Positions 13,376 through 63,003 of a DNA stretch of 64,000 nucleotides are shown here, one piece after another. The notes under the pieces are model-generated. The model had not been told where the DNA came from and did not search any database. It was given only the letters and a program-made list of their open reading frames with translations. Source of the DNA: Rhizophagus irregularis (lineage: Eukaryota); the NCBI RefSeq assembly GCF_026210795.1, contig NC_089433.1, forward strand, positions 1 to 64,000, in the 5' to 3' direction. Position 1 is the first letter of the stretch; every line of letters begins with the position of its first letter. A program made the translations under genes and the position numbers.

Positions 13376-13672
13376 CTGGCTTAACTGACTGATTCTGGGA
13401 AATATCTTAATTATAGACTATTGCTATTAACTGAAAATTAATATTATTTAGCCAAAGGTGCAATGTATAACTTATTCTTTATTTTTTACGCTAAATAATC
13501 TGTATACATGATCGCCTAGTAAAATTGGTCAAAGGCGCTATACATGAAAATGTATCACCTGCCAAATTTTTCAGATTAGTCCTTAACCCAGATCCCGGTT
13601 AAGATTATGCGCTTTCTGAGGATCAATATAAATCAAAGGTTCTCCCATTCTCTTTTATAATCACAAAAAAGA

Positions 13673-16128
13673 ATGGCATTTCGGAGGTCCCATCCAAGGC
13701 AGAGAAGAACATGTGAAGAATATAAAGCTGAACTGGAGGAGGAGAACTACCATCTTTGTAGTGAATTGCAAGCAGAAGTTGATAGTAACTGCCAAAATGA
13801 AAAGCAGATCAGGGAGCTGGTACGTGAATGTGTCCGTTGTGAACAAGAAATCCAAACTCTTAATGGTGAGATAGAACGTCTTGAGAATGCTTCGAAAGAG
13901 GAGATAGTAGAGCTAAAATCCGAAATTTCCAGCCTAAAAAAGCAACTATATCAAGCTAAGAAGGATATTCGTGATAATGAAAAACATATTTCTAGTATAG
14001 AGAGTCTGTTAGTAGATTCTGAGGAGCAGGTAGAGAAATTGCGATGCCGGATCAGAACCATCTCATCACGAAAAAATTCGCCAGAACGAGGAAATTCTCC
14101 AGACTTGTATAATCCTAATATTAACTTAGAAATGGCTACCATCACGGAGCTAGCAAATGCTATAGATGGTTATCTGAATAATACAACAATAGGTAGAGAA
14201 ATCTTAGCTGATCAAATAAAAAGGGCGACAAGGCAGATTCGCTGAAAAGAGAATAATTGGCATCAGGATTTAGTCCGTGAGCAACGAAGGCGATATGATG
14301 CAGAGGCTGAGCGTGATAATGAAATTATACGAAGGCAAAATGCTGAAGGAGTGGAACAAATGGTTATTGCTGACCTTTATCAGTTGCGGATCAATGCTCA
14401 AAATCAAGTAAATAGAATGTTAGACAATATAACAGGAAAGCGAACCCGTATTGGTATATTGCTACAGGAAAAATTTGCCTTACAATTGCTGTATCAGCGA
14501 AATGCCCATCACTTACAGCGCAGTAGAAAGGATATAGGTCTGTTAGAATTTAATCGTGACAGGCTCTATGAGTGATATGAGAAATGGAAAAATAAGACCC
14601 AAGCAGAGCGACAGAATAATTTAAATTTGCAAGGACAAATTTTGGCGCTTCAGAATAATCCACCTAATCAAGTAAACATGGCAGGAATACCTCATCCATA
14701 TTTTGACTGGGATGATAGTATCCCAGACTTTCTTGCGCAACTTAGACTAGACTTGCAAAATCGGGGAATAGATCCAGCAGGTGCAGGGGGCAATGGAAGA
14801 GCTCAGGCACTAGGACATTTAAGAGCATGTATGAGAGGAAGAACGCCTTAGAATGGTTTGATGAAGAGATTACTACAAAGACAAATTGGGAATTAACTAA
14901 TCTGACTGATGGTACAGGACAAGCCAATTTGGTAGCTGTAAACGGGCGTACAGCTATTCAGATCGGTGCTGATGGATTAAATGAGGCACTCTGACAACCT
15001 GGAAATGCAATAGTAAAATTAAGAGCTGTAGAAGGTCCATGGGACGAGGACTGGCGCATAGCAGGAGGTCGTCCTACTAATCTTCCTGTTAATTTACCGA
15101 ATGCTGGTAATGGAACTACAGTAGTTGTAGCTGGTATTCGATTTGGTCAAGCCGTATGGTGGCTAAAAACTCATTTTCCTACAGTAGAAGAGGAACTTCG
15201 GGATTTGATGTATGGAACAATCAGAAGGGAGACATGACTATAGATGAATTATATAGAAAAATATTACGAATAGGTAGACGAGCCAACTATAGACCTGAAG
15301 AATTACGTAGAAAGTTCTTAGATGCTTTACCACTTTTATGGCTTGAAAAAGCTGAAGATATTGGTGAACATTTGCCATTAGATGAATTAGCTAAAAAGCT
15401 TTATGAGATAGAATTACGCCGAATAGCTAGACATAAAAGAGATAGAATATCTGATCCACTAGTATCTAATCGAACATCTCGGCAAATATATGAACCTTCA
15501 CCTGTTTCAGCCTCACAACAGCATGGAATATCTTTAGAAGATATGCAAAAAGCAATCCAGAATGCATTAGCACAGCAAAAAACTGAATACCAGTCTTTAT
15601 TAGAAAAACAAAAAGCCGATTTCCAATCACAAATGGCCCAGCAAACTAAAAAGATACCTCCACCAGTTCCTCCTAAAAATATGGAACAGCTTCGATACAT
15701 ATGAAAGTGCTAATCCTTTCCCCGATACACTTACTAGGGAAGAAATAATGAGAGTGGTCGCAAAAGCTTATGGGCCACCTCCCCTCCACCGCAAAAAGCC
15801 AGAAAAGTTGCAATCATCTAGAATCGATAGATTAGAGTCAAAAATAGATGAAATTGGTCAAATGACATCTAAGTTTGGTAGGATATCACTTAATGATCAA
15901 TCTCGAAAGCCTTTTTATTGCAGTAATTGCGGACAGGAAGGGCATAAGAAAAACAATTGCCCAAGGTTAAATCCTGTAGCTAAATCCAATTTTACTCAAT
16001 GTTACTATCCTCAACTTCCATCTACACAGCCCCAATATACGCCTCCAGATTCAGATAATGAGGAAGATGGTTATGACAAAGTAGAAAATAGGTGGTATTA
16101 TGCACCGGAAAAAAAAACAGGTAAATGA
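13673..16128 (+). pseudogene. gag: Gag-like polyprotein: long N-terminal coiled coil, retrotransposon capsid, CCHC zinc knuckle
   Basis: Joined across stops (14243, 14573, ~14992) and frameshifts: PYFDWDDSIPDFLAQL...LRACMRGR..LEWF...WLKTHFP...Q(K)GDMTIDELYRKI...RRKFLDAL (major homology region-like), then CSNCGQEGHKKNNC. Confidence 0.8.
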
Positions 16129-18910: not shown

Positions 18911-19681
18911 AGGTCACTAAACATGAATCATCCCGAAATATTGGACATCCAGCAATGACATGGCCTTTCAGCATGTTGGTCATGGGGTAGAAGTGGTTCA
19001 GGTAAGACTAATTTACTTGCGAATCTTTTCTTCGGTAATAAGGATGAATATGTGCAAAGAGGGAAGAAAGGTGGGTCTCGCTACATCAAATGTGATGATC
19101 TAATTGTTTGTGGGTATCATCCTGATGAACCAAAGTGGGCATATGTGAGATACATATATAATATGATTTCGAAAGACCCAAGAGCACCTTACTATGAGAA
19201 TATTAGTTTCAGTTATATTCCACCCGAAAGAATTCCTAGTACAAGAACATTCTCACCCGAAAGAAGTAAATTATTTATTTTTGAGGATCTGTGCCTCGCT
19301 CCAGATCATATACAAAATCGTATTGGTCAGTTTTTTGGGAATGGGCGTCACCGAAATATTTCATGTATATATATTACGCAAAAGTATCATAAAGTCGATA
19401 CATTCAAACGTGAAAACTCGACTCATTTAGTATTATTTAACTCTGGTAGCAGTATCCAAGACGTGTCTAAGATTGTTGGACGATATATTGATGATGTAAA
19501 GGGTGCATCTATGGTTATTAATAGTTACCTTCGAAAAGGCGAGTTTGTTGTATTTGATCTCACTAGGCCAGAAGATGATCCTCTTGCAATCCGCCTAAGG
19601 TTTGACACTCCACTGAACTTACAAAAGGAGATAGAGGCTAGGCAGAAGCGCAAGAAAAAGAGTGCCTCAGCTAATGAGTAG
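18832..19681 (+). pseudogene. A32/FtsK-HerA-like DNA packaging ATPase (one frameshift just before Walker A)
   Basis: WPFSMLV.GRSGSGKTNLLANL (Walker A), KLFIFEDL (Walker B), and GRHRNISCIYITQKY...KREN (A32-family arginine/glutamine motifs). Extra base in ATGGGGTAGA near 18981. Confidence 0.88.
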
Positions 19682-19731
19682 AATCTAACTTCATAGATAC
19701 TAACTTTTTTTCGTAATTATAAAAAATTGGA

Positions 19732-20862
19732 ATGGGGGAACCAGTTATTTATATCGATCCTCAAAAAGCTCATGATTTAGACCAGCATCTTGCTTTGCAA
19801 AAAATATATTATCGTCCTGAAGGTCTTTATCAAAATGTTAAGGGATTATGGGATGCTTGTAAAAAAGCCGGCTACAGCTTTCCATTTATTGATATAAAAA
19901 AATGGCTTGAGGGCCAAGCAATGTATCAAATTTTTCGTCCTTCGCCAAAGCATATACCTTATGCCAGTTACTCTAAAATCACAAAGCCAAATACTGTGCA
20001 CCAATGTGATTTAATCGAAATACCATATGATGAAGATGTGGATACAAATTTACTAGATGATGGTCCAATATATTACTATGTACTATTGGTTATAGACTGC
20101 GCGACTAGATATAAAGATTTCATTTTTTTAACATCAAAGAGCAGTGAGGAAGTTGCGGAAGCATTTAAGAGTATATATAATAATCCCGATAAGCCTCTCA
20201 ACTGGCCTCGAAAATTGCAATGTGATAAGGGCACTGAGTTTATGGGATACGTAACTTTATTAATGGATGAACATGGCGTTGAGATCCGAAGAATTATAGC
20301 ACGTTTCAGGCATACAAGCTTGGCTATGGTCGACCGTTATGCTGGATTATTCGAATTAAGAGTTTTTAAAAATCAGTATTCAATAGAGTTTCTCCTGCCT
20401 ACTGGTAAGCGCTGTAGAGAATGTGAGCGGTTTGCAAGAAAAATTGTTGATAATATGAATGATAGCCCAACTCGATTGATTGGGATGAGTCCTAATGACG
20501 CCACAAAACTTGAGCAGATATATTCCAAACCATCAGTAAAATATAATCGCCCAATAGGTGTTGATGAACCACAACTACCAAAGGGTACTACTATCCAATT
20601 TTTGCTCGCTCCTGGAGAGTGGGAAAACGATCCTTTCGAACGACGCAGAATAACAGATCCGATATGGTCTCCCAGCCTGCATAAGATTCGGAAAATTGTT
20701 GTTGGAAAGAATCCTCCAATGCCTATTTTATATTATTTAGATGAATCAGGACCCCAACGCCCTTTCGTGAGAGAACAATTGATGCATATTAAGGAAGAGC
20801 CCATGTTACCTCCTAGGTGGATATTGGGAGATAACCGAATGCGTACAAGGCGCTCCTTATAA
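19732..20862 (+). CDS. Polinton/Maverick-type retroviral-like (rve) integrase
   Basis: LQKIYYRPEG...IKKWL..QAMYQI, HQCDL, LLVIDCATRY, LQCDKGTEF, AMVDRY, and C-terminal RRITDPIWS...LYYL...PFVREQL. Intact 376-aa ORF. Confidence 0.9.
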   Translation: MGEPVIYIDPQKAHDLDQHLALQKIYYRPEGLYQNVKGLWDACKKAGYSFPFIDIKKWLEGQAMYQIFRPSPKHIPYASYSKITKPNTVHQCDLIEIPYDEDVDTNLLDDGPIYYYVLLVIDCATRYKDFIFLTSKSSEEVAEAFKSIYNNPDKPLNWPRKLQCDKGTEFMGYVTLLMDEHGVEIRRIIARFRHTSLAMVDRYAGLFELRVFKNQYSIEFLLPTGKRCRECERFARKIVDNMNDSPTRLIGMSPNDATKLEQIYSKPSVKYNRPIGVDEPQLPKGTTIQFLLAPGEWENDPFERRRITDPIWSPSLHKIRKIVVGKNPPMPILYYLDESGPQRPFVREQLMHIKEEPMLPPRWILGDNRMRTRRSL

Positions 20863-23803: not shown

Positions 23804-26502
23804 TATATATATTGTGCCTCAGATTGATTCTATCTGGCAGTCCAAACTGAAAATTAAGATTGGTCTAGTCTGGATTGATACTTTAACTCAGACTGAAATA
23901 TTTAGTTTGGTTCAGTTTGATCCAGAATTATAAATCTAACTTGGGCTGAATTAAACAGGTTAAAACTAGACTGAACTGAAAATTTACCAAAAATTTATCT
24001 GTATTCTAATTCTATAATTCTGACTTGATAATAATCTTTCTGATATGTATAGTTTTATTTTAAGCCTATATTTATTTTGTGTAATATTAATTCATAAAGA
24101 GTTAAAGACGCATAATTTTCTTATATAGTATATATATTATACAAAGCAAATATAAACTTAAATTGAAGCTATACATGTCAGGTAGATTGCTATAGAGCCA
24201 AAATTATGAAATTAGAATACAGTTATAATTTTGGTAAAAATTTTAATTTTGATCATGTGATATTATAATAGCCAATTAAAATTTCAAATTTTTTATTATA
24301 GGACTGAACCAGACTAAATTAAATATAAACTGGTCTGATTCAGTCCTGAATTATCTTTTTAACATAATTCAGATCGGGCTGAAATGAAGCAATTTTTTTT
24401 AGTCTGGTACTAGGTTACTCCTTAACCTGGACAAATGTGAACCATTTAGAGCTTTATTCTTGCCTTAGCTGATAGTTAATGCTATACTTTTCGTCAAAAT
24501 GACAAAATACTAATTAAATTTATTTTGACAAATGTTATGTATTTTAACAGACGTAATTAATTTATAGTAATTTTATAATAACATATGTGCCGATTTTTGG
24601 AATTAGTCTAAATTAAGATTTTTATAAAAATTTAATATTTTAGTAAGATTAACATTACACAAATCTAAATTAAATATGTGTTACATATTTACGTGACTCA
24701 GATTTAATAAAAAATAAAAAAAATTTTTTTAATCAATATTCAAAAATAACGGTAATAACCACTTCTTTTTCCCCATCACTCCCATAACTTTTCCATCATT
24801 TTTCTATTCACTTTTATTAAATATGACAAAAAAGTTTATAAGCAAATATAGCAGTTATTTTTAAGTGGTAAGTAAAAGAAAAAACTTAATATTTTATATA
24901 CATAGATAAGACATAGTTTTTCATAATTTTTAACTTTAATTTATTGTTTTTTCTTTGTAAAAAATACATGCAAATAAAAAATAATTATGATGTAAAATAG
25001 TTGTAAAATGAATAATAAGATATTTTTTTTTCAAAATAACTAATTATATATTTGTTTTTTATCTTTTAAAATTATTTTATTAGATTTATTCTACTAAAAT
25101 CCTTAAATGGCAAATAAAATCTTTTAAATAAAGTAAAAGAATTTGGGATTTTCTTATGAAAGCATTTTTTGGTAAGAAATAAAATTTTCAGATCAGACTT
25201 TATACAGGTGACAAAATCGTGCATTATTATTCCTGGAGATATGCTAACATCATCATTTTATATTTATTTGAAAGTTGAGAATTTGCTCTATCGTAAGAGT
25301 CAACGATCAGGAAAATTGGATCACTGGATGAGGTGTAATTAACGATCAAAGTCAAATCAAATTTAAAAATTGAAAATAAATATATTAGACGTAATTATTC
25401 ACAATCCAGTGATTCAATTCATTCAATTTTAGGCTTATTAGATAGACCTCAATTTTCTCTTTCAAATGAATATAATTTCATTCATGTAACTTGCATCTAC
25501 AGGTATTTAATAAATTTTTTTATATCAGATTTTATCAAATTTATAAAATTTTATATTAATAATATAATTGATGATTCCTAAACATCTACATATATTAAAC
25601 GAATTATTTTAAATTTATTTTAAAGATAAAAGTTGGCATCACCTTAGGGAGCAAATCATTCAAATTGAATCACTATATGTGAAGTAATTAATGATCAAAT
25701 TTAGATAAAATTCAATAATATACTGAACGTGATTACTGAACAACTAGTGATTCGATTCACTTGATTTTAGATTCATTAGATAGATCTCGATTTTTTCTTT
25801 CAAATGAATGTAAATTTATTTGTATAGCTTATTTCTACGAAGAATTATCAATGATTTTGTCATGAGAGTTATATTTGATCTTTTAAATTTTAATGATATC
25901 TTATATTAAAAAAAAATTAAAAATTATATAATTAATTAGTTTTTTTTGCATTATCTGGTATAAATTTATTATTCTTATATAAATGATAATTTATATTTGC
26001 TTTAATAAAATTATTTTTGTGTAAAAAATTAGATTCCAAGGATCAGCCCATATGAATAGTGAATTAGTCTGTTCACCGAAATATGACATAATTAATTAGC
26101 GAAGAAGTATAGTTAACACATCTCAAATTAAAATTGTTACCTGGCACATCTCACTTTACAATAAAAAATTGATTATAATTAAACATTAAATTTTCTAATC
26201 TAATGTACATTTAATTATTAATAAAACTTATTTGCTGTATTTTCAAATATTCAATCCAAAAATTTTAGATCAATTGGATTCATGCTTACTTTTGAAATCT
26301 TCATTTAAAAATATATTTATAATGCAAATTTTTTCAAATAAATATTTACATTGTATATTTAATAGGAATTAAAATTGTGGTTTATTTATAGTAGACTAAA
26401 TTTATACAATTCAAATGAGATGTGTCAGGTGACGATTTTATTAATTTAAGATATGTCAGCTGTCAGCTGAGGCAAAAATCGATCTGAGGTACAACATATA
26501 TA
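23804..26502. mobile_element. Old TIR element/MITE with nested insertions
   Basis: TATATATATTGTGCCTCAGATTGATT matches the reverse complement of AATCGATCTGAGGTACAACATATATA. The inner arm (cacatctc...acctggcacatctc vs gagatgtgtcaggt) is split by later insertions. Confidence 0.55.
24483..26111. mobile_element. Non-autonomous DNA transposon (1.6 kb) with TATACTT termini
   Basis: Ends TATACTTTTCG...GAAGAAGTATA. Imperfect 8-bp TSD GTTAATGC/GTTAACAC. Both ends match the 155-bp element at 48766-48920. Confidence 0.75.
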
Positions 26503-43967: not shown

Positions 43968-46070
43968 ATGAGTAACTATACCATACTTATCAAGAAACAT
44001 AATTATTATGATGTATCAAGATATTCAGAATCAAGTATGTAATAATAATAATATTATTATAATTAATTTTAAGATTAAAATTTGAAATCTTAATTATTGT
44101 TTTTATAATTAGGTGATAATGAGCTTGATAGTACTTCGGATATCTCACTTTCTGATCATGAGTTACAATTAAAAGAAATCGTAATATCTTCTGATTTTAA
44201 TAATAATCACTATGATGATGAAGAATTTGATAGTGAAGATTATAGTGAGGATTATGATCATTCTAACGATGATCGTTACGATTATAATGATCATAATAAA
44301 TCCTCATTTAAGATGCTTTCATTTGTTTGCAACGTAAAAGGATGTTTGAAAAAATATACGTTAAAAAGTAGTTTGAAACGTCATATTCAACATCATCACA
44401 TAGAAAAAAATCCTTTTATTTGTGTCGAACCTCAATGCTTTAATATGAAATTTTCAACTCTTGATTTATTGAAAAGACATCAACAAAAAGTTCATGAGAA
44501 TCAAATCTTACATAAACGCTCATATATTAGAGAAAATATAGAATTAGATAAAATTTTAGAGAATAATGAAATTAAAATTTATGAAAGAAAGTACCCTTGT
44601 AAAGTGTCTGGATGTAACAGAGTATTTGATAGTAAAAGTGCAGTAGCATCTCACAAACGATTTCATAACACTGAAAAAGAAAAGAAATCTAACAAATGTG
44701 ATGTTCCCGTCTGTGATAAGATATCTGATAGTTTATATGAATTATGGGATCATGATCTGTTTCACCTTGAAAATAATAGAAAAATTTGTGATGAAACCGA
44801 ATATTCTCAACCATTTCAAAATTTACAAGAATTAAATGATGATCAACAAATATATACAAATGATAATTTAGGTGAAACTGAATTTAATTGTGATGTGCAA
44901 GGTTGTAACTTTAAAATTGGGCAATTTGAAGCTTTGAAACAACATCTAAATGACTATCATAACGTGAAGAATTATTATGTATGTAATAAAGAAGGTTGTA
45001 ATTTTTGCTGTACAAATGATTCAAACTTTTATAATCATCAACAAATTCATGTTGATAATAATGTTAATAATATAATTCATGATAAAAATGAATTATTCAA
45101 ATGTGAAAACCCTGGATGTGATAAAGTTTATAAACGTTTATGTCATTTAAGAGCTCATCAAAATCGAAGAAAACATCATTCTCAAGTTGAAGAAAAGAAT
45201 TATATTTGTGATGAACCTGGATGTGATAATGTTTATAAAAGTTTATATTATCTTAAAAAACATAAGGATCTTAATCACATAAAAATTTTATTACCTTATG
45301 TTTATATTGATAATGTAAACTTTGATATTAAACAAGAAAATACTTATTATTGTAATCATTCAGGATGTTCTTATACAACTAATCAAATGGAAGATTTAAC
45401 AAATCATAAGATGATTCATACTGAAGAAAAGAATTTAGTTTCATGCAATATTATAGATATATCAGAAAATAAGATTCATAATTTACGGAAAATTAATCAG
45501 ATTAATTATAAAAAAGATCAAGTTTTTATGAATAATACAAAAATCAATAGTCATTTATTAATTAAATCAAAGAAAAAGATCTTTTCATGTAATGATCAAG
45601 GATGTAATAAAAGGTTTATTACATTAAAAAACTTGAAAAAGCATAAGGCTAAAGCTCATTCAAAAAGTGCAAATAGTTTGTTTACTTTAAAATCTCAATC
45701 AAAAAATTATAATATATGCAAATATATAAAAAAGATTCAAATTCCTACTAGAGTATCATATGATTTTGTAAATAAAAAGCAATTAGATATAAGTAATGAT
45801 ATATCAAAAGGAAATGAATTAGATACTTATAGATTACGAAAACGTCCAAGAATTAATAAAATTAGAATATTGGATGATGATGATAATGATTGTCTTTGTA
45901 AATTTACTGGATGCAGAAAAATTTTCAATTCTGTGTATTCTTTAAAAATTCATCAGCAAAAGTTTCATATGATTACTAAAACTTATCCATGTAATAAATC
46001 TGAATGTAATTTTAGAACTAAATTTTTTGAAAAATTAAAAAAACATCAATTAGAAAAACATGGATATTAG
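43968..46070 (+). CDS. Multi-C2H2 zinc-finger protein (Cx4C type)
   Basis: More than ten CxxxGC..F.....L..H...H fingers. An upstream exon from ATG 43968 splices in frame at 44113. Confidence 0.88.
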
Positions 46071-50218: not shown

Positions 50219-50236
50219 TGGTGCGAGTTGGGTGGA
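50219..50236 (+). promoter_or_regulatory. Primer-binding site, tRNA-Phe-like
   Basis: TGGTGCGAGTTGGGTGGA is complementary to a tRNA ending ...CCACCCAACUCGCACCA, which resembles the yeast tRNA-Phe 3' end (CCACAGAAUUCGCACCA). Confidence 0.65.
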
Positions 50237-50258: not shown

Positions 50259-52519
50259 TGAATAAATAAGGAATTCCAGTATTTACAACAGATTTTTCAG
50301 CATATAGAAGATCATAACCAAGGAAAACAGGATTTAATTGAAGATTTATCGTGTGCAGATTGCTATCCAGAAGATCAGAATTTAGGATTATTAGAGAATC
50401 TCAGATTTAGAGAATTTTGGCAATTCATTATTTCACCCAGGTATCCAGATAGTGTTTTTACTCAAAACACTATACGAATCTTTAGGAAATTACAGCGACA
50501 ACGAGATAGCTAAGGTTGCTTGCCGAAACCTTCTTAATAACTGCTGAAACCTATACGGAAAATGCTGAAACTATATTAAATCATATTAAAAATCCTGCCG
50601 AAACTTTGCCGAAATGCCGAAACCCCCATTTGCCAAAACTGCCGAAACCCTGCCGAAACTATAGTAAACATATAGTAAAATCTTGCCAAAATTTATCGCA
50701 GGATTTTGGAGAGGTTTTGGCAAGCAACCTTAGACATAGCTAAGAAGTTTACAGATTAATTCAGGAGTTAGTTCAAACTATTAGGTATATAGTAATACCG
50801 GCATTTGATACATTAGTAGAAACGATACAATTCTATTGGGAAGTCACAGACCGATTCAATAATTGGGAAGCATATTATTCAGAACAATTATCAGATACAG
50901 CCAGTAATACAAGTAAGATGTCAGGAAACCAAAATAAGACAAATAAAAATGATGAAAGTTCAAGTAGTGAACAACAATTTGGAGGAACTGAATCTACAAC
51001 AAATATACAAGACAAAGCATGGCAAGACCAACAAAATGAAGAAGGTGAAAACGAAGAAGCAGAAAGTATAATATCACATGATACAGTACTCAAAAATGGT
51101 GAAGATAGTAGTTTCAGTCAATTAAGTATAGCCGATACATCAAACAACCATATTTATGATCCAAGAAAGGATAAGAAGGATAAGCAAAAGGCTAAAACTG
51201 GTGGTAGTTCAAATAAATGGAGTACAGAACCATTTTCAACTTATAAACCATATTCTGGTATTGGATTATCATCAAATCCTAAATCATTTGTAACTATAAA
51301 GCCATTTCAGGATTCATTCAGTTCTCCTAGTATTAGAACATCAACCTTGAAAACTTCTCGACAGAATGATCTTCTTGATTTTTCTAGTAATAATTTACAA
51401 GATGATGAGGAACCAGAAGAACAAACTCCTATTAGTGAAGCTGAACAAAATAAGATCATGTTACAGTTTTTTCAACAAGCCCAAAAATTTTATGCAAAAG
51501 GAGTTGAACCTAGAGAATTTAGACTGGTTGATTTTCCAGTTTTTAAAGGAGGAAATCAGGATCCTGTTGAATGGATTGAAGCTTTTAGTAAAGCTTGTAT
51601 AGCTAATAGAATTAGCGAAGAACGAGCGATTGTTTTAGTAGCATCATATCTAAAAGGGACAGCATTAACTTGGTACAATCGTCAAAATATTACTTTTTGG
51701 GAGAATGATAATAGCCCTCAATGATCATTTACGCATTTATTTAAGAATCATTTCTGTAACCCTTTCAGAATTAGCTAATGGAAACATCAATTGCGGAATA
51801 GAAAACAAAAGCAAGGTGAAACGATTGAAGAATATATCGCAGCAATTACAGAATTATGGAAAAGAGTAGATCCTACAGATAGACGAATGGAATTAGATAA
51901 AATCCATGAATTTATTGAAGGTTTAAGACCTGAATTTGTTGTACCTGTACAATCCGCTATGCCTCAAACAGTAGAAAAAGCAATGGAAAAAGCACAAGCA
52001 TTAGAAACTGCTTTTTCAATGGGAATGGATTTATCGGTCTATTCAATGATGCCAGGATATTTATAAAATATGAATAGAGGAATAATCCCTGCTCGAACCA
52101 ACTTAGCCATGTATCAACCTGCCTATTCGATGAGTTATTCCCAACCAGAAAGTGTAGAAAAGATGGTTGAACGGAAAATCAGCGAAGGAATTACTGCAGC
52201 ATTAAGTCAAATGCGCATAGAAACTAAACCAACTAATTCTACTCCGAATAATAATAATAATAATCAAAACAGGAATAATGCAGGATGCTATGTCTGTGGA
52301 AGAATCGAACATATCGCAAAAAACTGTCGTTAAAGAAATAATCAACAAAACAATAATAATCGCAACAATAATGGGAGAGATTTAAGGAATGTTGATTGTT
52401 ATAATTGTGGTAGAAAAGGACATGTCTCTAGGAACTGCAGATCACCACCATCAAATAATAATAATAGTAACAATGGAACTAATAATGGTTTTCAAAATAA
52501 TGGTCGTTTAAACTACTAA
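50259..52519 (+). pseudogene. gag: Ty3/gypsy Gag (capsid + two CCHC knuckles)
   Basis: FPVFKGGNQDPVEWIEAF, YLKGTALTWY, KQKQGETIEEY, CYVCGRIEHIAKNC and CYNCGRKGHVSRNC. The N-terminal extension is interrupted by a MITE. Start position is approximate. Confidence 0.88.
50511..50732. mobile_element. hAT-like MITE (family A)
   Basis: TIR TAAGGTTGCTTGCC. 8-bp TSD GAGATAGC/GACATAGC. Internal GCCGAAAC motifs. Confidence 0.88.
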
Positions 52520-52565
52520 GCGCACCTCTAGAGGGGGAGAGTGCGAATTTTAGAAAACCCTCTAA
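52507..52565 (+). promoter_or_regulatory. -1 programmed ribosomal frameshift signal (T TTA AAC + predicted pseudoknot)
   Basis: Slippery heptamer just before the gag stop, with pol open in the -1 frame. Stems CGCAC/GTGCG and TAGAGGG/CCCTCTA. Confidence 0.8.
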
Positions 52566-52995
52566 CGAAATTGGTACTAAAAGAGTGAATTGGAAGGACC
52601 CATTAGAAGAAATCAGACCTATTGAAAAGCCAATTCAACTATTAAAAAGACCTACATATGTTCTCAATATTTTATATAATAACTTTGGAATTTATTTATC
52701 GAAACGGCTACAGAAAAGTAAAACAATATATAATTTATGGCAAGTAGCAGGAGGAAAAGTAGAAAATCGTGAATTTTCTCTTCAAGTTGTGCTTAGAGAA
52801 ACAAAAGAAGAAACAGCGCTAGATATTAAAAAAGATGAATGTGTATTTTTATTTAACGATCCAGCTTTTAATTGTGATGTTTATTTAACAAAAGTACCTG
52901 ATTATCAAGAGTAGTGTTCTGAACGGGTCGGGTCACAGTTTGACCTGACCCGTTGACCCATTTGACCCGACATAATATTTCTGGTCAGATGGGTC

Positions 52996-53239
52996 TAAGG
53001 TTGCTTGCCGAAACCTAGGGGTTTAGGCAAGATGGCGTTTTGCCGAAAAGCGAAATTCTGCCGAAACTATATTAAAGTTATATTAAAAAACTGGCAAAAC
53101 TTTGGAGAAAGGCGAAACTGCTGAAACTTATTATAAATGCTGAAACTGCCGAAACTCTGCCGAAACTATAATAAATCTATAGTAAAATTTTGACGAAACT
53201 AATCGTAGGATTTTGAAGAGGTTTAGACAAGCAACCTTA
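52996..53239. mobile_element. hAT-like MITE (family A) nested in the previous element
   Basis: TIR TAAGGTTGCTTG and perfect TSD GATGGGTC. Confidence 0.9.
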
Positions 53240-53254
53240 GATGGGTCAAATATG

Positions 53255-54425
53255 TAAAAAAAAATGCCGAAACGTTTTTTTTTGTATTATTATTAAGAAA
53301 AAACGTTTCGGCATTTTTTCATATAAAATTATTAGAAAAAAATGCCGAAACGTTTTTTTTGCATGATTATTAAGAAAAAATGTTTCGGCGTTTTTTCATA
53401 TAAAATTTAAAAAAAAACGCCAAAACGTTTTTTTTTAATATTACTTATTAAGAAAAAACATTTCGGCATTTTTTCATGTAAATTATATTTAAAAAAACGC
53501 CGAAAACATTTTTTTTTTGTATTAGTTGTTAAGAAAAAACGTTTCAGCGTTTTTTCATATAAAATTATTAAAAAAAATGCCGAAACATTTTTTTTTATAT
53601 TAATTATTATAGAAAAAACGTTTCGGCGTTTTTTCATATAAAATTATTAGAAAAAAATGCGAAACGTTTTTTTTTTGTATTAGTTGTTAAGAAAAAACGT
53701 TTCGGCATTTTTTCATATAAAATTATTAAAAAATAAACGCCGAAACGTTTTTTTTATATTAATTATTATAGAAAAAACGTTTCGGCGTTTTTTCATATAA
53801 AATTATTAAAAAAAAACGCTGAAACATTTTTTTTATATTAATTATTATAGAAAAAACGTTTCGGCGTTTTTTCATATAAAATTATTAGAAAAAAATGCGA
53901 AACGTTTTTTTTTGTATTAGTTGTTAAGAAAAAACGTTTCGGCATTTTTTCATATAAAATTATTAAAAAATAAACGCCGAAACGTTTTTTTTTATATTAA
54001 TTATTATAGAAAAAACGTTTCGGCGTTTTTTCATATAAAATTATTAGAAAAAAAATGCTGAAACGTTTTTTTTTGTATTAATTATTATAGAAAAAACGTT
54101 TCAGCATTTTTTCATATAAAATTATTAAAAAAAAATGCAGAAACGTTTTTTTTTTGCATTATTATTAAGAAAAAATGTTTCGGCGTTTTTTCATGTAAAT
54201 TATATTAAAAAAATGCTGAAAACGTTTTTTTTTTGTATTAGTTGTTAAGAAAAAACGTTTCAGCGTTTTTTCATATAAAATTATAAAAAAAAACGTTAAA
54301 ACGTTTTTTTTTTAGTATTAATTATTAAGAAAAAACGTTTCGGCGTTTTTTTATATAATAAATATTAAAAAAACGCCGAAACGTTACTTTTTTAACAGAA
54401 AAATGTCAAGTTTGGCGTTTTTTGT
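53255..54425. repeat. Tandem array of ~78-bp units built from inverted GCCGAAACGTTTT / AAAACGTTTCGGC motifs
   Basis: Directly visible repetition. Confidence 0.9.
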
Positions 54426-57400
54426 TTTTTTTTAACTAAAAAATGTCGGGTTGACATTTTCAATTAAAAACCCCGGGGTTTTTTAATTTTTTAATCATTT
54501 TTGATATACGGGTCAAACGGGTCAAACGGGTCAAACAGGTCGGGTCAGGTAAGACGGGTTACCCGACCCGACCCGACCCGATTTTTTTTTGTCGGGTTGG
54601 GTAAGACGGATTACCTGACCTGACCCGACCCGTTCAGAACACTAATCAAGAGTTACAGCGAACTGAACCTGAAAAACAAGGAGCTTAGACAATTACTTCT
54701 TTTGAACAATTCCAATTTATGGTGAAACATAATGAATTAACCCCAATATTAGTTAATTATTATACTGATATTCTTAACCAATTGATTAGAGAAGAACCAG
54801 CATATCTTAATCAAAAAGAAAGAGCTGAAGAAGCTTTGTATGGAGAAGCGATTGTATATGGACAACCTGTTAATGTCTTAATAGATTCAGGGGCTGTAGG
54901 TTGTATTATTTCTAAAAGATTCCTAGATAAAGTCAATAAAGGAATTGAATTACCTACGAATATTAAGATCATTGATGTAACAGGACAAAAATCATCACCG
55001 TTAGGGATGGTTCAGCAAGTCCCAGTGCAAATGAGGGATATTAAAGTCTATGTCAATATGATAGTCACAAACTCAGCTGAATATAATGTTCTGCTTGGTA
55101 ACGAATGGTTGAAGAAAGTTAATGCAAATATCGATTATGGACAGAATACCATCACCATTAAATATGAAGGAATTCAACAACAAATTCCTATCACATGTTC
55201 TCAAAAATTGGACCCAACAAAATATACAGTCATTGACCCAGTAGATAAACTAGAATTAAAAGATGAGTTAGAAGACACCATAGCCGTTCCATTTTACAAG
55301 GCAGAAATAACCAAAAGTACTTTTCAAATCAATGATCGAGAATATCACCCAGGGTATCTGGAATATATTAAGCAACAAAGTCACAATAGTACTGGCGTAA
55401 TTAATAGTAAAATACCAGGAAAATGCCTATGTAAAACCTTAGGAGATCAAGAAGTTTGTGATAATTGTCAAATAGTTCAAGAAGATTGGAATATTTATCA
55501 CGTGATGCAAGAATCAGAAAGTCCGAATGTATCTAATATTCAATTAGAACCAGAAAAAGTTGTTCCGATTGGAGAATTAGAGAAAAGTCAATATCAATCA
55601 CTCCATCAATTACTAGAAAAAAATAAAGACTTCAGCTATTCGCTAAATCATTGCAAGAGTTAAAACAAACTCCAGAAGGGGAACATATTATTATCACTGA
55701 AGAAGTGCCACCTATCAAAAAGCGAGCTTATAGGACAGCATCAAAGGAAAATGAATTTATTGAGAATGAAATTAATGACATGTTAGAACAAGGGCTAATA
55801 GAACCATCGACTAGTCCATGGTCATTTCCAGTAGTAGTAGTGAAAAAGAAGAATGGAAAACTTAGGTTTTGCGTTAATTATAAACCTCTTAACGATATTA
55901 CAAAAAAGGATAATTACCCACTTCCAAGGATTGATGAATTATTAGATTCTTTACAAGATGCACAATGGTTCACCACTTTAGATTTAGCGTCAGGGTATTG
56001 GCAAATAAAAGTAAGGGCAGAAGACCAGGAAAAAACAGCTTTTATCACAAAATTTGGAACCTACGAATTCAAAGTTATGCCTTTTGGACTTTGCAATACA
56101 CCTGCGACATTTCGGCGAACTATAGATAAAGTTTTACATGGAATAAAGGAAAAGTTCGTTTTAGTTTATCTTGACGATGTCATTATATATTCAAAAACTT
56201 TTAAAGATCATATCCAACATTTGGAAGAAGTTCTAAATAGAATTTGTAAGGTGAATTTAAGATTAAAAGCAGAGAAATGTCATTTTGCAGCAGCTGAATT
56301 TCAATTTTTAGGATATGTTGTGGAAAAAGAAGGTGTTAAACCTGATCCAGAAAAAGTCGATAAAATGGTTAATTACCCAGAGCCTCAAAATATTAGAGAA
56401 TTATGTGGAGTCCTAGGATTATTCTCTTATTATTGACACTTTATCAAAGATTTTGCTAAAGTTGCTGATCCAATGTACAAGTTATTAAAAAAAGATGCAC
56501 CCTATGAATGGACGAATTTACAACAAAAGGCATTCGAGAATTTAAGAGATAAATTAACAATGGCACCGATCGTACAATACCCAGATTTTTCAAAACCTTT
56601 CTTCTTATATACCGATGCTTCAATTATAGGGTTAGGCGCAGTACTTGCACAAAAAACTGATGATCAAGAGCATGTGATTGCCTATGCTAGTCGAACTTTA
56701 ATACCGGCGGAAAAGAATTATGCCATCACAGAATTGGAATGCCTTGCAATTGTATGGGCAGTTAAATATTTTCGACATTATCTTTATGGAAGTAAATTCA
56801 CCATCATCACCGACCATGCAGCGCTCAAGTGGTTGTTGAATTCAACAACAGAGAATAATAATAAAAGATTGGAAAGATGAAAGATTGCCTTATCGGAATA
56901 TAAATATGACATTGTATATCAGAAAGGAACTAAACATACGAATGCTGATGCATTATCTCGTCTCGACTCAACCTCAACTAATAATCACACCAATCCTTTA
57001 ACCTCACATAACGATCATGGATGAACAACCATATAAAGAATTAATTTTATTTTTAACAACTCTCACTTTTATGGATGGTATAACTGATAAACGGAAAACC
57101 CAAATTCGGAAAAACTCAACCCAATATATTTATCAAAACAATATTTTATTTAGGAAAACAAAGGATGGTATAAGAAAAGTAATTCTACGCGAACAAGTAG
57201 AACCTATTTTATATCACTTTCATACAGATATGAGCGGTACTCATTTAGGAATAGATGCTATAATTGGAAAAATCAAAGATCGATATTATTGGCCACAATT
57301 GGGAGAAGATGTAAAAGAATATATAAGAACTTGTGATATTTGTCAAAGAAGAGGACCTACTAATCGTTGAGAGGAACTGATACCAATACCAGTTAAGGGA

Positions 57401-57846
57401 CTATTTCACAGGATAGGAATTGACATTAAAGGACCATTACCGATCACCAGTAGTGGAAATAGATATATTATCGTCGCCATGGATTATTTTACAAAATGGC
57501 CAGAAGCAAGAGCGATATCCAATATTAAAGCAGAAACAGTAGCTAAATTTATTTATGAAGAAATTATTTGTAGACATGGAGTTCCACAAGAAATTCTATC
57601 AGATAGAGGAACATCATTTATGAATAAATTGATTGATGAATTATGTGAAAATTATCAAACTAAACATCATTTTACCTCAGCTTATAAACCTCAAACAAAT
57701 GGAATGGTTGAAAGATTTAATCGAACAATTGGTGAATATATTGCAAAATTAATTCAAGATAATAATAAGGAATGGGATCAATTAATCGATGCAGTACTTT
57801 TAGCGTATCGAACGAAGAAACATAATACTACAGGAAAAACACCATT

Positions 57847-58257
57847 CTCTCTATACTAGAAATATGTTTTTCATTATCACGAATATCCTTCTTAGTTCTT
57901 AGCTTGATATAGTTGCTTTTTTAGGCTGGAAATTTCAGATTTTAGCTCTACTATCTTCTCTTTCGAAGCATTCTCAAGACGTTCTATCTCACCATTAAGA
58001 GTTCAGATTTCTTGTTCACAACGGACACATTCACGTTCCAGCGCCCTGATCTGCTTTTCATTTTGGCAGTTACTATCAACTTCTGCTTGCAATTCACTAC
58101 GAAGATGATAGTTCTCTTCTTCCAGCTCAGCTTTATGTTCTTCATATGTTCTTCTCTGCCTTGGGTGAGATCTGCGAAATGACATTCTTTTTTCATAATT
58201 ATAAAAGAGAATGGGAGAACCTTATTGATCCTCAGAAAGCGCATAATCTTGACCAGG
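57847..58257 (-). repeat. Inverted second copy of the 5' part of the zone-1 gag gene and its leader
   Basis: The reverse complement matches about 13590-14004 (MSFRRSHPRQRRTYEEHKAELEEENYHL vs MAFRRSHPRQRRTCEEYKAELEEENYHL). Confidence 0.95.
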
Positions 58258-58304
58258 ATATTACTTTGCAGAAATACAAGGAAAAAAGTATCCCCAACCA
58301 AATT

Positions 58305-59181
58305 CTCACTAATGAATAGAATTCGACTTCATAGATGCCAGCTCCTTTTCTGCCTCCAGCACTTGCATCTTCAGATTTTTGATCTCATAGCGCATTTTCT
58401 TATTTGCAGTAATCCACTCTCTATATTCCTTTTCTATGTCATGCATAAATTTCTCAAAAGTTCATTTATTATAATCGATCAGATGTCTGAGATAGTACTT
58501 TAAGCTCATTCATAACCTGGCGATTATTCTCTTCTTCATAATCATGCTTTAGTGCCTCTGGCCAAGTAGTAACATTGGTTTGGGACCAATTATCTACAAC
58601 ATGTATAGTCAGTAATGCTGGGGATACATTACATTCTGGCCATCTTCAAGGGCGCAATATTTTTTCCTGAGTCATAGTTTTACGTTTCTTCTTATTTAAC
58701 GAATTCTCATAAACCTCTAATGTGCACCTCAAATAAGATTCAATTCGTTCAGACTTCTTGGAAATAGATTCTAATGGAACAGGGTCTTTAGAATGGTGCA
58801 AGAGTCTCTGGAGGACCCCGGATATCTAATATAAAGGTCATAATGGACTTTTGGCCAAAAACACCCCTTTTTGCTGAAACTCAAAAAATCGTTTTTTGTA
58901 AATATCTCAGCATCCAGTAATTCAATTTTAATGAACTTTTTTTTATTTTGTAGCCCTCATTTAGCTCTACAATTTAAAAAAAAGTTCATCAAAATTGGAC
59001 CACTGGATGCCGAGATATTTACAAAAAACGATTTTTTGAGCCCCTGAAAAATGGGCCAATCTGCCAAAAGTGTGACTTATGACCTGTTTTGGAGATATCC
59101 GGGGTCCTGTCTCTGGCAAGCTCTCTTGACAAGACTTTCAGGTAGTCTATCAATAATATGTTTATAGTCAGAATGGAACAT
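58305..59181 (-). pseudogene. Hypothetical protein (MFHSDYKHIIDRLPESLVKRACQRLLHHSKDP...), interrupted by a MITE
   Basis: The frame is restored on removing the 58812-59108 MITE plus one TSD. Further stops and frameshifts lie downstream. Confidence 0.5.
58812..59108. mobile_element. Foldback MITE
   Basis: TIR AGGACCCCGGATATCT, perfect TSD GTCTCTGG, internal 119-bp dyad. Confidence 0.92.
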
Positions 59182-60905: not shown

Positions 60906-63003
60906 TAGAGCTCCGAATTTGACCTGACGGATTGGGTGACCTGACGGGTTGACCCGAAAAATTCAGGTCGGGTAGCAGATTTAATGACCCGACCTCAGGT
61001 CAGGTCAGTCAGAGTCGGGTACCCGACCTGACCCATTGACCTGACATATTTCGGTCAAAAATAAGACGTTTCAGCATTTTATATATATAAAAAAATGCCA
61101 AACTGACCTGAATCCGACGTTTTTTCATTAAAAATAATTACAAAAATGTCTTTTTTTATTAAAAATATCAGGTTCGATCAAAGAAACAAAAAAAAAATGT
61201 TTCTTTAATTAAAAAATGTCAGGTTTGATGTTTTTTCATTAAAAGAAACAAAAAAAATGTTTCTTTAATTAAAAAACGTCGGGTTTGACATTTTTTCATT
61301 AAAAGAAACAAAAAAAATGTTTCTTTAATTAAAAAACATCGGGTTTGACATTTTTTCATTAAAAGAAACAAAAAAAATGTTTCTTTAATTAAAAAACATC
61401 GGGTTTGACGTTTTTTCATTAAAAGAAACAAAAAAATGTTTCTTTAATTAAAAAACGTCGGATTTGACATTTTTTCATTGAAAGAAACAAAAAAAATGTT
61501 TCTTTAATTAAAAAACGTCGGGTTTGACATTTTTTCATTAAAAGAAACAAAAAAATGTTTCTTTAATTAAAAAACGTCGGGTTTGACATTTTTTCATTAA
61601 AAGAAACAAAAAAAATGTTTCTTTAATTAAAAAACGTCGGGTTTGACGTTTTTTCATTAAAAGAAACAAAAAAAAATGTTTCTTTAATTAAAAAACGTCA
61701 GGTTTGACGTTTTTTCATTAAAAGAAACAAAAAAAATGTTTCTTTAATTAAAAAACATCGGGTTTGACGTTTTTTCATTAAAAGAAACAAAAAAAATGTT
61801 TCTTTAATTAAAAAACGTCGGGTTTGACGTTTTTTCATTAAAAGAAACAAAAAAATGTTTCTTTAATTAAAAAACGTCGGGTTTGACGATTTTTCATTAA
61901 AAGAAACAAAAAAAAATGTTTCTTAAATTAAAAACGTCGGGTTTGACATTTTTTCATTAAAAGAAACAAAAAAAATGTTTCTTTAATAAAAAAACGTCGG
62001 GTTTGACGTTTTTTCATTAAAAGAAACAAAAAAAAGTTTCTTTAATTAAAAAACGTCGGGTTTGACGTTTTTTCATTAAAAGAAACAAAAAAAAAATGTT
62101 TCTTTATTAAAAAACGTCAGGTTTAACGTTTTTTCATTAAAAGAAACAAAAAAAATGTTTCTTAAATTAAAAACGTCGGGTTTGACATTTTTTTATTAAA
62201 AGAAATAAAAAAAATGTTTCTTTAATTAAAAAACGTCGGGTTTGACGTTTTTTTCATTAAAAGAAACAAAAAAAATGTTTCTTTAATTAAAAAACGTCGG
62301 GTTTGACGTTTTTTTCATTAAAAGAAATAAAAAAAAATGTTTCTTTAATTAAAAAACGTCGGGTTTGACGTTTTTTCATTAAAAGAAATAAAAAAAATGT
62401 TTCTTTAATTAAAAAACGTCGGGTTTGACGTTTTTTCATTAAAAGAAACAAAAAAAATGTTTCTTTAATTAAAAAACGTCGGGTTTGACATTTTTTTCAT
62501 TAAAAGAAACAAAAAAAAATGTTTCTTTAATTAAAAAACGTCGGGTTTGACGTTTTTTTCATTAAAAGAAATAAAAAAAATGTTTCTTTAATTAAAAAAC
62601 GTCAGGTTTGACGTTTTTTCATTAAAAGAAACAAAAGAAACAAAAGAAAACGTTTCTTTAATTAAAAAATGTCGAACCTGACGTTTTTTATTAAAAGAAA
62701 CAAAAGAAAATGTTTCTTTAATTAAAAAACCTCGAACCTGACGTTTTTTATTAAAAGAAACAAAAAAAAATTGTTTCTTTAATTTAAAAATGTCAGGTCC
62801 GACGTTTTTCATTAGAAGAAACAAAGTTTTGGCGTAATAAAAAGTGCCGAAACGTTTTTTTGATCTAAAATATATCGGGTCAATGGGTCGGGTCGGATAT
62901 CCGAACTGACCCGTGATATTCGGGTCGGGTCATCAAATTCATGACTTGCCTTGGGTCGAGTCAAGTCAATTACCCGACCTGACCCGACACATTCGGAGCT
63001 CTA
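60906..63003. mobile_element. hAT-like non-autonomous element
   Basis: TIR TAGAGCTCCGAAT/ATTCGGAGCTCTA and subterminal GACCCG/CGGGTC repeats. No 8-bp TSD visible. Confidence 0.8.
61110..62825. repeat. Tandem array of ~59-60-bp units (roughly 27 copies)
   Basis: Unit AAAAGAAACAAAAAAAATGTTTCTTTAATTAAAAAACGTCGGGTTTGACGTTTTTTCATT. Confidence 0.95.

Follow-up and report, generated by a model that had tools for sequence, protein, structure and literature searches.

A Nudix hydrolase domain within pol of Ty3/gypsy retrotransposons of arbuscular mycorrhizal fungi

The Ty3/gypsy element and its interrupted Nudix domain

The window analyzed here is a stretch of 64,000 nucleotides of Rhizophagus irregularis DNA (contig NC_089433.1, positions 1 to 64,000), which at about 50.2-57.85 kb holds a decayed Ty3/gypsy element with a Nudix hydrolase domain at the start of pol. 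Pfam domains occur in the order capsid, two CCHC knuckles, NUDIX, aspartic protease (PR), reverse transcriptase (RT), RNase H (RH), and integrase (IN), so that the gag to PR-RT-RH-IN order of Ty3/gypsy elements (Metaviridae) is present; the nearest named proteins are from R. irregularis (91-95% identity). The open reading frame (ORF) at 52501-52911 matches the Pfam NUDIX profile (PF00293) with an E value of 4.5e-8 and 33.6 bits, against a cut-off of 21.1. Compared with the signature GX5EX7REUXEEXGU, the window's Nudix box (G-KVENR-E-FSLQVVL-RETKEETAL) has all of G, E, R, E, E, and E, with Thr at U and Ala in place of the last Gly. An earlier note, made from the sequence alone, had placed such a box right after a -1 frameshift at the start of pol, and both the profile match and a slippery heptamer, TTTAAAC, at 52507-52513, two codons ahead of the gag stop, agree with that placement. 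The span given there, 52585..54790, does contain the domain; its limits are refined here to about 52636-52911 plus 54653-54793, and 52514-52635 is a linker between the frameshift site and the domain. The features of this region are as follows.

52507..52564, + strand: -1 frameshift cassette made up of TTTAAAC and a probable H-type pseudoknot with stems at 52521-25/52541-45 and 52529-35/52558-64
52636..52911, + strand: Nudix domain, 5' two-thirds (Pfam NUDIX; positions 1-93 of the family hidden Markov model; box at 52753-52821)
52912..54644, no strand assigned: non-autonomous hAT-like DNA transposon splitting the Nudix domain (terminal inverted repeats, 8-bp target-site duplication, nested miniature inverted-repeat transposable element [MITE])
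54653..54793, + strand: Nudix domain, 3' third (TEPEK loop and closing helices), interrupted by a copy-specific stop (54686-54688)

The insertion is 1,733 bp long, with terminal inverted repeats that match at 24 of the first 30 nucleotides, a perfect flanking 8-bp target duplication (52904-52911 / 54645-54652), and an internal tandem array of 79-80-nt units. We label it hAT-like on the rule, taken here as given, that an 8-bp duplication marks this group. Once one copy of the duplication is discounted, the two Nudix halves are in register, and the domain is restored in frame with the protease ORF, as the earlier note had proposed. Two X13 contigs depart from the window at 52912 and resume with the bases after the right-hand duplication, representing uninterrupted copies. 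The internal TAG (54686-54688), previously supposed to be a mutated TGG, is copy-specific: all covering contigs of other copies (12 in X4 and 1 in X13) have G at 54687, and intact relatives have Trp at this position. Another inverted-repeat element in the window, at about 60980-63000, carries a 60-nt tandem array and resembles this insertion in style.

Position and history of the Nudix module in pol

A search with the 5' part of the window's Nudix domain among longer proteins gave 30 matches among 92 candidates; the matches are mostly annotated as NUDIX plus protease, RT, or gag and come from R. irregularis, R. clarus, R. diaphanus, and metagenomes. A 10-sequence profile yielded at least 80 metagenome loci, and the slot counts given here refer to these 80; the same profile recovered 188 representatives at E values below 1e-10 among 1.84 billion. 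The domain precedes PR in 16 of the 80 loci (slot I), lies between PR and RT in 9 (slot II), and follows RNase H in 27 (slot III). One-sided context fits slot I at 5 further loci and slot III at 2, and 21 loci have no pol neighbor on the contig, 17 of them being nearest to the slot-III family. These counts are not independent, because a single family, in decayed copies, makes up most of the slot-III loci; P0160 and P0293/L016 are separate slot-III lineages. Broken or partial copies account for 58 of the 80 loci. Uninterrupted ORFs in raw metagenome DNA encode Nudix-PR-RT-RH (L006, 3501-6644) and gag-PR-Nudix-RT-RH (L017, 710-5026), and P0293 is an uninterrupted RT-RH-Nudix ORF. Pol includes the Nudix domain in frame. 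A 60-amino-acid (aa) fragment from Funneliformis caledonium falls in the same 90% cluster as one slot-II lineage, and UniRef labels fragments of the Nudix family "8-oxo-dGTP diphosphatase." A chance motif or a mis-joined gene model was also considered and rejected, since unspliced metagenome ORFs read Nudix-PR-RT-RH without a stop.

Of 17 slot-I sequences examined, 16 have the heptamer TTTAAAC in register with pol, and the codon directly after it ends the gag frame in 15 of these. In the window, the two short stems 3' of the heptamer could form a pseudoknot. With a -1 frameshift site upstream, the Nudix domain of this lineage would be made only as the first folded pol domain of Gag-Pol, and therefore in an amount equal to that of PR and RT.

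Farther downstream, the integrase ATG and the stop codon of RNase H overlap (ATGGATGA/ATGGATAA/ATGGATAG or TAATG) at all 9 junctions examined in slots I and II, namely, 57017-57024 in the window and L001, L006, L008, L009, L013, L017, L058, and L069. The overlap suggests that integrase may be translated by termination-reinitiation; a literature search on this stop/ATG arrangement found no account of it. A small Cys/His module (H.H..CxxC...CxC) adjoins the Nudix domain in several slots (L013, L014, L017, L022, P0154, and P0099; by eye also P0293 and L006) and occurs once after RNase H without Nudix. It appears to be a second mobile module.

Among the 120 best RT relatives listed, many of which are truncated, 6 carry NUDIX. 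Among the relatives without a Nudix match, a single open frame extends from capsid to RNase H in 12 and from PR to integrase in 9. P0058 and P0070, which adjoin the slot-I clade, have the same post-frameshift motif running into the protease with no Nudix domain between. Absence from related elements had been raised in the earlier note as grounds for doubt; relatives do carry the domain in frame with the protease and many others are without it, so the Nudix domain is accessory, not core, in pol. The survey of intact family members and the RT phylogeny, both foreseen in that note, yielded continuous Nudix ORFs and carriers that do not form one RT clade. In a quick RT-RH tree of 85 rows, Nudix carriers fall in separate places, and in a 33-row subset (13 carriers and 20 others) their monophyly is rejected by the approximately unbiased (AU) test (p 0.00012). 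A single ancient capture inherited vertically is rejected for RT-RH by the same test.

When the Nudix domains are treed on their own, they look like a single family: the group uniting all 33 slot-typed domains has a support of 95 (55 rows) in a 92-row tree and 72 in a 47-row tree. AU tests on the Nudix tree leave a separate clade for each slot unrejected (p 0.56, 0.33, and 0.45) and so lend no support to repeated moves within a slot. The simplest account of these trees would be that one Nudix module moved between lineages and slots at least twice; a possible alternative history is one gain followed by relocations and many losses. Candidate donors among viral contigs were limited to weak generic Nudix matches (best E value 5e-12, 37% over part of the domain, against 80 viral-contig loci), and the ESM Atlas returned generic bacterial clusters. 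The same Nudix family also occurs outside a retroelement at L019 (916-2997; also L047), in a gene-dense stretch of 27% GC with F-box, Nudix, and Mrr-type nuclease ORFs. This stretch may belong to a DNA virus or another kind of mobile element and could give a clue to where the module came from.

The link between Nudix and retrotransposons is partly known. Pasterny et al. (2025, PMC12210691) described a fungal NUDIX "subfamily K" of Glomerales, whose protease, zinc-knuckle, and RT domains are noted in a table and in the supplement, which calls the combination a fusion. Subfamily K is the same protein family: its listed member RGB29190.1 is P0018 (a direct match, 67% identity), GES97325.1 is P0305, in the cluster of P0012, and the box published for K is identical to that of P0012. 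The parts of PMC12210691 on subfamily K contain no pol module, frameshift, three slots, selection analysis, or RT phylogeny. What is added here is the in-frame pol module, its three slots, the non-monophyly of its carriers, the Nudix-less sister lineages, and the evidence of selection. Among the papers listed in literature searches, we found no other account linking Nudix to retrotransposon domains; further cases may be present in subscription journals, bioRxiv supplements, Repbase, or Dfam. P0220 joins a deoxynucleoside kinase to a related Nudix domain, an arrangement also seen in subfamilies C and F of PMC12210691.

The closest parallel is the dUTPase of retroelements. In Postia, Ty3/gypsy dUTPases have been reported at either end of Pol (N- or C-terminal) or between PR and RT, and dUTPase-bearing Ty3/gypsy elements are described from Postia, Phanerochaete, and Tuber (PMC2864245); dUTPases also occur in bdelloid rotifer elements (PMC5408684) and in equivalent variable slots in retroviruses (PMC4531489). 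Both systems place a small nucleotide hydrolase in frame in pol, in variable slots and patchily across lineages, and in betaretroviruses, as in slot I, a -1 frameshift just after nucleocapsid (NC) precedes the hydrolase. The comparison with dUTPase made in the earlier note is strengthened because the Nudix module occupies three pol slots. The two enzymes differ in that dUTPase has an unrelated fold and chemistry (a trimeric dUTPase versus a Nudix box), and Postia-type dUTPases are reported to derive from different sources (PMC2864245), whereas the Nudix domains look like one family. There is no Pfam dUTPase match in the window or its relatives; the proposed likeness is one of function, not of membership.

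Selection, fold, and candidate substrates

We estimated dN/dS for 26 codon-aligned Nudix pairs, which are not independent and of which 20 are unsaturated. All 20 lie below 0.55; 16 have values of 0.06-0.24, with all three slots represented, and the other 4 (three near-identical copies and one partial domain) have values of 0.35-0.54. The values for PR and RT are mostly lower. The Nudix module is under purifying selection in all three slots. Among 33 slot-typed domains, box residues R15, E16, and E20 are present in 33, E7 and E19 in 32, and the loop Glu in 30, and these catalytic residues are near-invariant in domains that are only about 40-55% identical. Both results, together with the distribution of carriers over more than one RT clade (AU p 0.00012), speak against the domain being a passenger, that is, a host gene fused once to a retrotransposon, as PMC12210691 reads it, or a non-catalytic spacer or folded linker. 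Such a passenger would fit the dispensability of the domain in the sister lineages P0058 and P0070, a Nudix dN/dS somewhat above those of PR and RT, and the many broken or partial loci, and we regard it as improbable.

The region also folds as Nudix, a point on which the earlier note had left room for failure. The AlphaFold model of an intact relative, P0007 (74% identical to the 5' part in the window), has a predicted local distance difference test score (pLDDT) of 92.9 and a predicted template modeling score (pTM) of 0.87. It is a plain alpha/beta/alpha Nudix fold (Foldseek E value 1.6e-8; VIA Z 16.2, root-mean-square deviation 2.9 over 121 residues). The module is minimal, at 139 aa, with a median net charge of -1.5, -1, and -5 in slots I, II, and III, respectively, and has the family-specific motifs WQ, ND.x.NCDxY, and TPTH/L.

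By sequence, the best matches among solved structures, all of them (d)NTP pyrophosphohydrolases, are MutT (1e-12), NudB (5.5e-10), AtNUDX1 (8.5e-8), and NUDT15 (MTH2; 3.3e-7). The box and an "EPEK..W"-type loop are common to the family and the NUDX1/R. felis MutT group; identity to these enzymes is only 20-29%, and the family differs from them in having its own motifs and in being fused in a polyprotein. The small stand-alone relative P0233 has AtNUDX1 and MTH1 as its best matches, and the deoxynucleoside kinase-Nudix fusion P0220 falls in a weakly supported sister group. For subfamily K, supplement 2 of PMC12210691 shows 8-oxo-dGTP docked in a NUDT15-like pocket. On these grounds we lean, with slightly better than even confidence, toward the module being a packaged sanitizer of the (d)NTP pool in several Ty3/gypsy lineages, which would cleave damaged or non-canonical (d)NTPs such as oxidized purines. 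In the lineage of the window, it would be made as part of Gag-Pol by -1 frameshifting and would enter the virus-like particle at RT stoichiometry, where the element's protease probably trims it out. The box glutamates would bind Mg2+ and convert (d)NTP to (d)NMP and pyrophosphate, so that damaged (d)NTPs could be hydrolyzed beside the reverse transcriptase.

Dcp2, RppH, and the viral decapping enzymes have the same fold and box. One alternative is that the domain removes the 5' cap or pyrophosphate from RNA, either from the element's own genomic RNA, as a switch from translation to packaging, or from host mRNA, like Dcp2, RppH, and poxvirus-type enzymes. Dcp2 occupies the first row in Foldseek, two RppH enzymes have sequence matches of 2.5e-7 and 1.2e-6, and the NC knuckles (slot I) or the adjoining Cys/His module (4 loci and 1 protein by pattern match) could bind RNA. 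The Nudix domain itself, however, is minimal and neutral to acidic, with no extra RNA-binding element inside its 139 aa; the Dcp2 sequence match (5e-4) spans little beyond the box; the viral decapping enzyme g5Rp ranks 50th in VIA (Z 12.9); and no close relative was found among 80 viral-contig loci (best E value 5e-12, 37% over part). We consider decapping quite unlikely, although not as improbable as a passenger.

The substrate may instead be another small nucleotide, whether ApnA, ADP-ribose, NAD(H), or an inhibitory nucleotide of host origin, in which case the enzyme would act on a stress or defense signal and shield the element from host restriction rather than from mutagenic dNTPs. The ADP-ribose-bound NrtR domain ties at the top in VIA, patchy gain and loss across RT lineages fits conflict-driven cargo, and docking in PMC12210691 puts NADPH, NAD+, Ap3A, and Ap4A on top across the new subfamilies. 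That docking has little power because nearly all subfamilies gave the same ligands, and hydrolases of Ap4A, NADH, and ADP-ribose match more weakly by sequence (1e-5 to 5e-4) than MutT or NudB. We judge this alternative unlikely, if somewhat less so than decapping.

Several observations weigh against a role in sanitizing the (d)NTP pool. Substrates of Nudix enzymes are poorly predictable from sequence, and the alignment column that we take to correspond to Asn119 of MutT, which reads 8-oxoG, holds His or Leu here. By structure, Foldseek ties Dcp2 (1.6e-8) with NUDT15 (2.1e-8), and the VIA Z-scores of MutT-like, NrtR, and Dcp2 domains lie within 1 of each other; by sequence, the RNA pyrophosphohydrolases (RppH) 3ees (2.5e-7) and 4jzu (1.2e-6) score like NUDT15. 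The top ligands named in the main text of PMC12210691 are the four compounds given above, for all new subfamilies. The domain is also dispensable, because many related pols do not have it. Finally, polyA RNA, sampled as about a quarter of each of three runs from two samples with the same species label, gave zero reads over the 5' part of the Nudix domain in the 3 runs and only about two over the capsid region, and pol (3.25 kb) received 2 reads in X19, one of the 2 raw-read RNA runs. The Nudix-bearing family is close to silent in the sampled RNA; expression of subfamily K is reported from one species only (PMC12210691).

A broader version of the sanitizer reading is tentative, and we hold it to be rather less than an even bet. 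In this version, one MutT/NUDT15-like module would have hopped among distant Ty3/gypsy lineages of arbuscular mycorrhizal fungi and non-retroelement mobile DNA, into dUTPase slots, where it would act as an antimutator in the virus-like particle against oxidized dNTPs. It would be the first retroelement-encoded sanitizer of oxidized nucleotides and would partly explain the apparent richness of these fungi in Nudix genes.

Retroelements have compact genomes and seldom retain an additional enzyme in pol, dUTPase being the textbook case. A second, unrelated nucleotide hydrolase in the dUTPase slots, under selection in separate lineages, would imply that nucleotide quality or a nucleotide-based host defense limits reverse transcription in these fungi. 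The 139-aa enzyme is directly assayable. The published "new fungal NUDIX subfamily" can be reread as transposon cargo and not as a host housekeeping or thiopurine enzyme, which bears on the annotation of mycorrhizal genomes.

Remaining features of the element and the window

The remaining features of the Ty3/gypsy element are listed here.

50219..50236, + strand: putative primer-binding site, beginning with TGG, just 3' of the CA end of a probable 5' long terminal repeat (LTR), as predicted from the sequence
50262..52519, + strand: gag (capsid, two CCHC knuckles), disrupted by several stops and a MITE (Pfam Retrotrans_gag, Ty3_capsid, and zf-CCHC; ORF list)
50511..50734, no strand assigned: MITE, a small inverted-repeat element within gag (an X13 contig skips 50507-50738)
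54833..55138, + strand: aspartic protease (DSG), sharing its frame with the 3' part of the Nudix domain (Pfam RVP_2, E value 1.9e-15)
55627..57024, + strand: RT and RNase H (Pfam RVT_1 and RT_RNaseH), with internal stops and a 5-nt copy-specific insertion near 55632
57017..57856, + strand: integrase in its own frame, its ATG overlapping the RNase H stop; an unrelated insertion truncates it at about 57850

The LTR evidence in the window consists of the probable 5' LTR end and the primer-binding site, the 3' end of the element being cut at about 57850; self-comparison of the window revealed no second LTR copy and no 3' LTR, and the window contains no tRNA gene with which the putative primer-binding site could be compared. 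The window copy is dead: its gag carries stops and a MITE, its Nudix domain is split by the insertion, a frameshift precedes RT, further stops interrupt RT/RH and IN, and the element is truncated at ~57850. At 57847-59108, a piece 91% identical to 13592-14004 on the opposite strand truncates the integrase, and a 300-bp hairpin-like repeat comes after it (58812-59108).

The MITE in gag matches 53059-53241, a second copy inside the large insertion, at 78%. The two copies (50511-50734 and about 52995-53241) are roughly 225-245 bp long with apparent 6-bp target duplications; they have very high depth in X13 and are the main source of the region's few RNA reads.

Elsewhere in the window, a higher-GC block at about 1-24238 encodes a Pox_A32 packaging ATPase (18959-19678), an integrase (19723-20859), and a RING protein and has a terminal hairpin (23983-24238); judged by this gene content, the block is a predicted Polinton- or adintovirus-like element. 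A 653-aa ORF with multiple C2H2 zinc fingers at 44109-46070 is probably a host gene.

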